5,262 bases of DNA, from IMG/VR virus record IMGVR_UViG_2526164664_000018. One strand, 5' to 3'. Of the stretch, positions 4,175 through 4,564 are shown piece by piece. The notes beneath the pieces are model-generated. The model did not search any database. It was not told the origin of the DNA and was given only the letters and a program-made list of their open reading frames with translations. Source of the DNA: a virus. Its lineage: Duplodnaviria > Heunggongvirae > Uroviricota > Caudoviricetes. Each line of letters starts with the position of its first letter. Position 1 is the stretch's first letter. Position numbers and translations under genes: made by a program.

Positions 4175-4217
4175 TTGATGACCGACAGGGTGGCATTGTT
4201 AGAATAAGACTTATTCT
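4175..4217 (+). promoter_or_regulatory. Putative sigma70 promoter (extended -10) and overlapping palindrome upstream of the lipoprotein gene
   Basis: TTGATG (4175-4180) as a -35-like hexamer, 19-nt spacer, then TG-n-TAGAAT (4197-4205) as an extended -10. A perfect palindrome AGAATAAG-A-CTTATTCT (4201-4217) overlaps the -10. Spacing is not ideal and nothing has been tested. Confidence 0.3.
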
Positions 4218-4231
4218 TATCTGTGCCGGGA

Positions 4232-4564
4232 ATGAAAATGAAAAGAAATCTTCCGTTAATTATTTTGTTGTCTTCTCTGGTTATGGGCTGTACGCAACAT
4301 AAAACAGATATGCCCCGACAGTTGGTTAAGGCATTACCACAATATCCGGCCTATGCAGCGGCAAATTATATAAAGGGACGGGTTGATGTGAAGTTTGATA
4401 TTGGTGCTGATGGTACTGTCACCCGAATTGAGTTTATCCGTTCAGAGCCGCACCATTTGTTTGATGAGCAGGTTGTAAAGGCGATGGCAAAATGGCGATT
4501 TGAGAAGGACAGGCCGTGTAAAGGCGTGAAGAAAACGTTTATCTTTAGTCCTTCTGCACCCTGA
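4232..4564 (+). CDS. Lipoprotein consisting of a TonB C-terminal-like domain (stand-alone TonB-CTD), prophage moron
   Basis: ATG 4232 (alternative ATG 4238 has the better SD spacing from GGGA 4228-4231; the ORF-track start 4223 is GTG). Signal peptide MKMKRNLPLIILLSSLVMG|C with lipobox. Mature part PQYPAYAAANYIKGRVDVKFDIGADGTVTRIEFIRSEPHHLFDEQVVKAMAKWRFE aligns by eye with the E. coli TonB C-terminal domain ([56 protein letters not shown], recalled from memory). Gene is visibly AT-richer than its neighbours. Confidence 0.8.
   Translation: MKMKRNLPLIILLSSLVMGCTQHKTDMPRQLVKALPQYPAYAAANYIKGRVDVKFDIGADGTVTRIEFIRSEPHHLFDEQVVKAMAKWRFEKDRPCKGVKKTFIFSPSAP

Follow-up and report, generated by a model that had tools for sequence, protein, structure and literature searches.

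Gene and features at the locus

The DNA analyzed here is a 5,262-nucleotide stretch from a Caudoviricetes virus (IMG/VR record IMGVR_UViG_2526164664_000018), referred to below, at its full length, as the window. It comes from a lambdoid prophage of Shiga-toxigenic Escherichia coli (STEC) and corresponds to its late region; bases 4100 to 4700 show 100% identity to E. coli O103 RM8385 and to many other STEC strains. The gene under study lies in that segment and encodes a small lipoprotein that carries a stand-alone TonB C-terminal domain (CTD). An earlier note, made from the letters of the sequence, had described it as a prophage moron and had suggested that its product is a periplasmic decoy that blocks TonB-dependent phages or colicins or modulates siderophore uptake. 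The parts of the gene, the elements upstream of it, and the neighboring genes are listed in Table 1.

Table 1. Positions of the TonB-CTD lipoprotein gene, its upstream elements, and the surrounding genes in the window
Feature	Position (nt)	Strand	Basis
Coding sequence (CDS), stand-alone TonB-CTD lipoprotein, 108 amino acids	4238-4564, including stop codon	+	Open reading frame (ORF) list; identical RefSeq CDS
Lipoprotein signal peptide: MKR n-region, hydrophobic core, lipobox L-V-M-G-C18	4238-4291	+	Read from sequence
Linker T19-M25 (7 residues, TQHKTDM), from lipid anchor to domain	4292-4312	+	AlphaFold2 (AF2) per-residue confidence (pLDDT), alignment
TonB CTD, P26-F103, equivalent to E. coli TonB P153-F230	4313-4546	+	Alignments, model pLDDT >95
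Sigma-70 promoter-like element: ATGACC, 16-nt spacer, TG-n-TAGAAT (extended -10)	4178-4205	+	Consensus scan
8-1-8 palindrome AGAATAAG-A-CTTATTCT over the -10	4201-4217	.	Sequence scan
Fur-box-like 19-mer GATAAG AATAAG T CTTATT, 13/19	4203-4221	-	Match to consensus
DUF1378 and DUF826 genes	First in window order		Pfam
P21-type holin	864-1079		Pfam
Lysozyme	1084-1617		Pfam
KilAC antirepressor	1891-2585		Pfam
Rz	~2715-3164		Pfam Phage_lysis, 4.7e-50
Rz1, proline-rich, embedded in Rz	2917-3102		ORF list
Rha-family regulator	3341-3892		Pfam
YlcI/YnfO (DUF3950) gene	4696-4896	-	Pfam
HNH endonuclease gene	After YlcI/YnfO gene, ahead of terminase		Pfam

The product is a lipoprotein whose folded part is a TonB C-terminal domain

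The translated product begins with MKRNLPLIILLSSLVMGC, continues through TQHKTDM, and enters the domain at PRQL. An identical CDS is present in RefSeq (WP_000828068.1), where it is annotated as "TonB family protein." Two alternative in-frame starts exist, an ATG at 4232 (110 amino acids) and a GTG at 4223 (113 amino acids). The ATG at 4238 was preferred because a GGGA Shine-Dalgarno sequence lies 6 nt 5' of it and because of the phage 21 allele, and it is also the start called in RefSeq; the length of 111 residues given in the earlier note was thus slightly off.

The signal peptide, MKRNLPLIILLSSLVMG-C18, reads as a textbook lipoprotein type, with the lipobox cysteine following a basic n-region and a hydrophobic core. 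Cys18 was invariant in all the aligned homologues (25/25). The residue that follows the lipobox cysteine governs the outer-membrane sorting of lipoproteins (the +2 rule). In the 25-homologue alignment this residue was T, S, A, or V, Thr being the one found in the window protein, and since it was never Asp, the window protein is predicted to be sorted to the outer membrane.

Only 7 residues separate Cys18 from the domain. Model confidence was low up to approximately residue 25, and the linker varied in both length and sequence across the family alignment. No transmembrane (TM) anchor and no proline-rich spacer can be read in the protein: its sole hydrophobic segment is the cleavable signal peptide ending at Cys18, which contains no His and does not constitute a TM helix for coupling to ExbB/ExbD, and the short linker does not amount to a proline-rich, periplasm-spanning spacer.

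Residues 26 to 103 could be aligned without gaps with residues 153 to 230 of E. coli TonB, with 31 of 78 positions being identical (40%). The similarity noticed by eye was therefore real, while the identity then estimated (about 45%) was too high. The Pfam profile TonB_C (PF03544) matched with 54.8 bits against a cut-off of 24.6 (E value, 1.3e-14), and the NCBIfam profile tonB_Cterm (TIGR01352) matched with 54.5 bits against a cut-off of 27.1 (E value, 1.1e-14), whereas the full-length TonB models of NCBIfam reached only 49 to 74 bits, versus cut-offs of 265 to 448. A sequence search of the PDB retrieved the E. coli TonB CTD (1U07; E value, 6e-16).

An AF2 model built on an alignment of 25 sequences had a pLDDT of 86, with values above 95 in the core; the model obtained from the single sequence was poor (pLDDT, 56). 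When the alignment-based model was compared with solved structures using Foldseek, 1U07_A was matched with an E value of 1e-8 and a root mean square deviation (rmsd) of 1.1 Å over 83 columns. The target TM-scores against the TonB chains 2GSK_B (BtuB:TonB) and 2GRX_C (FhuA:TonB) were 0.92 to 0.93, the value for 2GSK_B being 0.93. The top 11 matches were all TonB or FusB CTDs, with rmsd values of 1.1 to 3.3 Å (1.1 to 1.2 Å for the top three). The likeness to the TonB CTD was thus significant at the levels of both sequence and structure.

The domain therefore has the same fold as the E. coli TonB CTD (approximately residues 150 to 239; 1U07, 2GRX, 2GSK), to which it is 37 to 40% identical. It keeps the YP motif and the aromatic core (Y36, P37, F53, G59, F75, W86, F88, and F103), along with the exposed beta-3 strand, which in TonB pairs with TonB boxes; the tail that follows beta-3 is shorter than in TonB and consists of only 5 residues, including two prolines. 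Unlike TonB, the window protein is predicted to be lipid anchored and lacks the N-terminal TM helix and the proline-rich spacer, hence there is no coupling to ExbB/ExbD. Sequence, profiles, and model all agree with the architecture that had been proposed, and the gene product is a secreted lipoprotein whose single folded part is a TonB CTD.

FusB of Pectobacterium, which is among the best structural matches (7ZC8, 9HI3), is a TonB homologue whose CTD binds a substrate, ferredoxin. In contrast to the window protein, FusB is a full-length, membrane-anchored energy transducer.

A family of TonB-CTD lipoproteins in prophages and chromosomes

An exhaustive HMMER search retrieved proteins of approximately 107 to 133 amino acids with the same combination of lipoprotein signal and TonB CTD, and a search with a profile extended the set to Pantoea, Erwinia, Rahnella, Raoultella, and Klebsiella and to one record labeled Salmonella. 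On sequence grounds, the window protein belongs to an Enterobacterales family of TonB-CTD lipoproteins of about 110 amino acids.

The survey of genomic contexts revealed two kinds of location, the lambdoid prophage slot and single chromosomal genes. In prophages, the gene was always found between the lysis cassette and the terminase or cos, in four divergent backgrounds: two E. coli types (that of the window and that of phage 21), Klebsiella phage ST13-OXA48phi12.4, and a Rahnella-type prophage. The other members are single genes in ordinary chromosomal neighborhoods of Raoultella, Erwinia, Pantoea, and others. The protein is therefore not a phage invention, given that the family is also chromosomal in Pantoea, Erwinia, and Raoultella.

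The position had been described as the one where lambda carries bor, which is only approximately right, since in phage 21 bor and the TonB-CTD gene stand side by side between Rz/Rz1 and cos. Like the TonB-CTD gene, lambda bor occupies the slot between Rz and cos, encodes a lipoprotein, and is expressed from the prophage; it differs in belonging to another family, in lying on the opposite strand, and in its reported role, serum resistance. The shared accessory slot, adjacent in phage 21, and the spread of the family as single chromosomal genes with varied neighborhoods would suit an envelope lipoprotein unrelated to TonB-dependent transport, with a function in peptidoglycan or periplasmic binding or in Bor-like serum or stress resistance. 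The failure of the family to retain the TonB-box contact residues R166 and Q160 (see below) points in the same direction. We consider such a role rather unlikely, because the closest structures are all genuine TonB domains and the candidate Fur boxes described below tie the family to iron physiology.

Some neighbors of the homologues deserve mention. At one locus (L099, 2208-4739), the chromosomal homologue P0180 has as neighbors a fragment of a phage integrase and a gene whose product contains a pore-forming colicin domain (PF01024). A small ORF that may be the corresponding immunity gene comes next; this single case is suggestive of a bacteriocin link. A gene for a DUF1440/YagU-like membrane protein adjoins the Raoultella ornithinolytica homologue (L085, 7738-8301), and a gene of the same kind lies approximately 3 kb upstream in a Klebsiella phage that carries a homologue (L003, 2277-2903), possibly by coincidence.

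Conservation, expression, and previous annotations

The window allele was found in 417 of 5,426 complete E. coli genomes (7.7%) and the phage-21-type allele in 1,225 (22.6%), including that of UTI89; the counts were made per allele, and the two sets of genomes may overlap. Carriers include STEC O103 and the uropathogenic strain UTI89. In all copies at 80 IMG/VR loci the ORF was intact, with few substitutions (e.g., C94/R), and it is also intact in the window although the same prophage copy has a damaged Rz and a frameshifted antirepressor. The window and phage 21 alleles share 72% identity, with a dN/dS ratio of 0.12 and a dS value of approximately 1.5, which indicates that the gene is under purifying selection.

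As for expression, the phage-21-type allele of prophage Perceval, LF82_160 (labeled "TonB fragment"), was transcribed 8-fold over the prophage background in a culture of the lysogenic adherent-invasive E. coli strain LF82, and it was listed as a moron (PMC9928086). The moron status of the gene is consequently upheld by the transcription of LF82_160, an allele 72% identical to that of the window, and by the dN/dS value. The richness in AT that had been pointed out is moderate: the gene has 43% GC, compared to 50% for the window, with a local minimum of 39 to 40% at positions 4101 to 4400. Taken together, this is a conserved gene, expressed in lysogens, that occupies a lambdoid accessory slot, with the lysis cassette on one side and the packaging genes on the other.

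Existing annotations had already recorded the similarity to TonB, namely, those of RefSeq ("TonB family protein"), the phage 21 record, Perceval, and the ev017 record ([quoted passage not shown]). Labels such as "TonB fragment" and "partial tonB-like" imply a dead leftover of a captured tonB gene, and the lack of a TonB N terminus would fit that idea. However, it is contradicted by the selection and conservation data, and we find it barely credible: in addition to the low dN/dS ratio at a dS of ~1.5, the product carries a lipoprotein signal peptide of its own, in which the Cys is invariant, the gene is intact in approximately 1,600 genome copies, and the allele in the LF82 lysogen is transcribed (PMC9928086). 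Furthermore, in a neighbor-joining tree (without bootstrap support values), the phage alleles clustered with the Klebsiella and Raoultella lipoproteins, away from the genuine TonB CTDs, and therefore the gene would not be a recent piece of a host tonB.

A second label comes from PHROG, in which phrog_1267 (lysis category), named "Rz-like spanin," matches the protein over its full length (7.7e-43). Being a lipoprotein of the outer-membrane type whose gene comes shortly after the lysis cassette, the protein might indeed be taken for a spanin. Nevertheless, Rz and an embedded, proline-rich Rz1 are already encoded in the window, and the family extends beyond prophages. The fold is globular and that of TonB, a C-terminal TM segment is missing, and the proline-rich character of o-spanins is lacking. 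The architectures of o-, i-, and u-spanins were thus not found, and a spanin function was rejected as very improbable on the basis of the fold and the separate Rz/Rz1. The label was most likely transferred from the genomic neighborhood, and it is likely to spread into phage annotations.

Full-text literature searches yielded no functional study of the window protein and no exclusion factor combining a lipoprotein signal with a TonB CTD. A 2024 review on superinfection exclusion lists only Cor for FhuA. What is new is the recognition of the protein as a selected member of a lipoprotein family instead of a fragment, together with, at the sequence level, its repeated capture by prophages at the same slot and the candidate Fur boxes of its homologues.

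Promoter region and candidate Fur boxes

The promoter-like element upstream of the gene and the palindrome overlapping its -10 are both present as had been described, but the element is not distinctive, with 2 promoter-like matches being found versus 1.6 expected in shuffled sequence. Phage 21 conserves only the extended -10 stretch, TGT(T/C)AGAATAAGAC. No intrinsic terminator was found downstream of the gene. The best promoter-like match in the region (TTCACA-16-TATAAT, 11/12) lies on the minus strand inside the TonB-CTD ORF (4392-4365); it may be an antisense promoter or may have arisen by chance.

The best match to the Fur consensus GATAATGATAATCATTATC was taken from the 200 nt upstream of each gene. 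The window palindrome matched at 13 of 19 positions, a value equal to the best shuffle score and reached by 6% of 200-nt background windows. Among the homologues, the best candidate match was 14 to 17 of 19, situated 29 to 36 nt before the ATG, in 9 of 16 loci belonging to five independent lineages; a score of 14/19 was reached by 1.8% of the background windows. Candidate boxes lie over the predicted -10 in Pantoea, Erwinia, and Raoultella loci (L099, L098, L091, L085, L084, L097, L100, and L103), and in the Pantoea-type loci L091 and L099 they overlap a perfect TATAAT.

The window palindrome is located at -35, the position of the candidate Fur boxes in the homologues, and has the same forward-forward-x-reverse arrangement of hexamers. 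Its 13/19 match gains meaning because the homologue promoters have stronger matches at the same position, and the Fur-like site of the window allele is best taken as a lead. The family as a whole is probably iron regulated, and, as far as we have found, the chromosomal TonB-CTD lipoprotein genes are unreported candidate members of the Fur regulon. Since many family members carry strong candidate Fur boxes, their biology appears to be tied to iron starvation, which makes a role in iron uptake a rival to superinfection exclusion alone.

According to the first of these two possibilities, a Fur-controlled, tethered TonB-like domain would promote transport, for which it might bring binding proteins of the periplasm to the transporters or keep ligand-loaded transporters ready for TonB, and the phage-borne gene would be a lysogen fitness gene like sitABCD. 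In agreement with this, the chromosomal homologues have strong candidate Fur boxes, TonB-like CTDs can bind partners other than TonB boxes (as FusB does with ferredoxin in PDB 9HI3), and sitABCD is present in all seven phage records with the phage-21-type allele (7/7). Co-occurrence with sit is, however, limited to one phage lineage: of the 27 phages with sit, 20 have no TonB-CTD gene, and sit is absent from all the window-type phages. Besides, no transporter or binding-protein gene was adjacent to any homologue in the loci examined, and the sole experimental precedent for unanchored TonB domains, reported in a preprint discussed below, is inhibition. For these reasons, we regard a helper function as unlikely.

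The sitABCD genes, which encode an Fe/Mn importer, are located in the b region of phage 21 and its relatives ev017, Perceval, PhiR47_2, PhiR57_1, and PhiR63_2; in phage 21 they lie at 21967-25416 of the phage record (L094, 9968-13417). The idea that sitABCD compensates for a decoy was dropped, the co-occurrence being confined to a single lineage.

Proposed mechanism: competition for TonB boxes

The most likely mechanism, which we put forward tentatively, is that the protein acts as an outer-membrane-tethered, energy-uncoupled competitor for TonB boxes. After processing by signal peptidase II, the lipoprotein, with Thr at +2, would be sorted by the Lol system, so that the domain would hang from the inner leaflet of the outer membrane on its 7-residue tether, beside the periplasmic faces of TonB-dependent transporters. 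The exposed beta-3 edge would then pair with TonB boxes through the kind of beta-augmentation seen for TonB in 2GRX and 2GSK, and the boxes engaged could be either those of the transporters themselves or those of incoming TonB-dependent (group B) colicins. Because there is no membrane anchor, spacer, or ExbB/ExbD link, no force would be delivered, and every occupied box would be withheld from the real TonB. The net result would be a dose-dependent damping of TonB-dependent entry, affecting T1/phi80-type phages, group B colicins, microcins, and, in part, siderophores. Expression would probably be linked to iron limitation, the condition under which the transporters are most abundant, because the chromosomal members have candidate Fur boxes over the -10 and the window has a weaker look-alike.

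Laboratory precedent for such an effect exists. According to a preprint that cites earlier work, the periplasmic TonB fragments 33-239, 103-239, and 122-239 inhibit TonB-dependent activity (bioRxiv 10.1101/2020.01.05.895219). Like these engineered dominant-negative fragments, the window protein would be an unanchored C-terminal portion of TonB exported to the periplasm, and they may serve by analogy as a functional model. The fragments are soluble, overexpressed laboratory constructs, whereas the window protein is the product of a natural gene, lipid tethered, reduced to the minimal domain, and 40% identical. Protection from TonB-dependent phages and colicins is plausible. An outer-membrane decoy could, we infer, also capture the TonB boxes of group B colicins in the periplasm.

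The same preprint also raises the possibility that periplasmic TonB affects the interaction between ExbD and TonB (bioRxiv 10.1101/2020.01.05.895219). An analogous poisoning of the energy transducer, by formation of a heterodimer with the TonB CTD or by binding to the periplasmic domain of ExbD and not to TonB boxes, would be compatible with the conservation of the TonB CTD aromatics F53, F75, W86, F88, and F103. We judge it improbable, as the 7-residue tether to the outer membrane restricts the reach of the domain toward the inner-membrane complex.

In nature, the nearest counterparts are Llp of T5 and Cor of phi80/N15, likewise small phage outer-membrane lipoproteins, which act on FhuA from the periplasmic side and thereby exclude phages. 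The window protein differs from them in its unrelated fold: no fold or sequence shared with Llp or Cor was detected, the best matches among solved structures being TonB domains only. The model had no match in BFVD at an E value of ≤0.001; many BFVD matches for Llp are reported in the T5 Llp preprint. Llp and Cor each act allosterically on one receptor, while a mimic of TonB would act on TonB boxes in general.

Several observations weigh against competition for TonB boxes as the function. In the first place, much of the family consists of ordinary chromosomal genes that appear to be controlled by Fur, and an inhibitor of iron uptake that is induced by iron starvation is counterintuitive. Second, R166 of TonB, which in the 2GRX paper reportedly forms a salt bridge to FhuA, is replaced by Tyr in the window protein and in nearly the whole family, and the position of Q160 is variable; in view of these two positions, specificity for TonB boxes is only putative. 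Third, the Fur-like site of the window, with only 13 of 19 matches, is near chance, and in the phage 21 allele the right arm of both the palindrome and the Fur-like site is missing. Finally, a PADLOC search gave no match for the window protein, the RM8385 prophage has no cor gene, and no sign was found that the prophage's own receptor is a TonB-dependent transporter.

Two narrower proposals were discarded. Self-exclusion via FhuA was dropped, as the RM8385 prophage contains no cor gene and nothing informative on the receptor, and a reading as a defense system was rejected for want of a PADLOC match.

In its broadest form, competition for TonB boxes would extend to a Fur-controlled family of outer-membrane-tethered TonB mimics that serves as a generic trap for the TonB boxes of transporters and colicins. 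Such a family would confer broad immunity to TonB-dependent phages, colicins, and microcins during iron starvation, when cells are most vulnerable, and it would have been captured repeatedly by lambdoid phages, reaching up to ~30% of complete E. coli genomes. We hold this extension to be somewhat doubtful.

Siderophores, colicins, microcins, many phages, and siderophore-conjugated antibiotics have a major route of entry in the TonB-dependent transporters. A widespread natural TonB mimic, if confirmed, would represent a new class of receptor-proximal protection, generic in contrast to the single-receptor Llp and Cor, with relevance to phage therapy, to competition mediated by colicins and microcins, and to susceptibility to Trojan-horse antibiotics. 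If the protein instead aids iron uptake, it would be an unrecognized accessory of the Ton system. The misleading labels "TonB fragment," "partial tonB-like," and "Rz-like spanin" would be replaced.

Other features of the prophage region

A comparison with the RM8385 prophage showed that 110 bp are deleted from the window at 2768-2775 (L001, 10559-10669), between short CCAT(T/A)ACC repeats. This deletion removes the end of a 43-amino-acid membrane ORF and the first 21 codons of Rz, which correspond to the i-spanin membrane segment, and this prophage copy probably has a defective lysis cassette.

The antirepressor gene is also altered. A change from A7 to A6 in a poly-A run (approximately 2049-2055) frameshifts the KilAC antirepressor, giving the ORFs 1891-2067 and 2115-2585, while the gene is intact in RM8385 (231 amino acids). 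Just after the Rha-family gene, at 3903-3938, three tandem copies of the 11-nt unit CGCCGTATCGT were observed, the third being degenerate.

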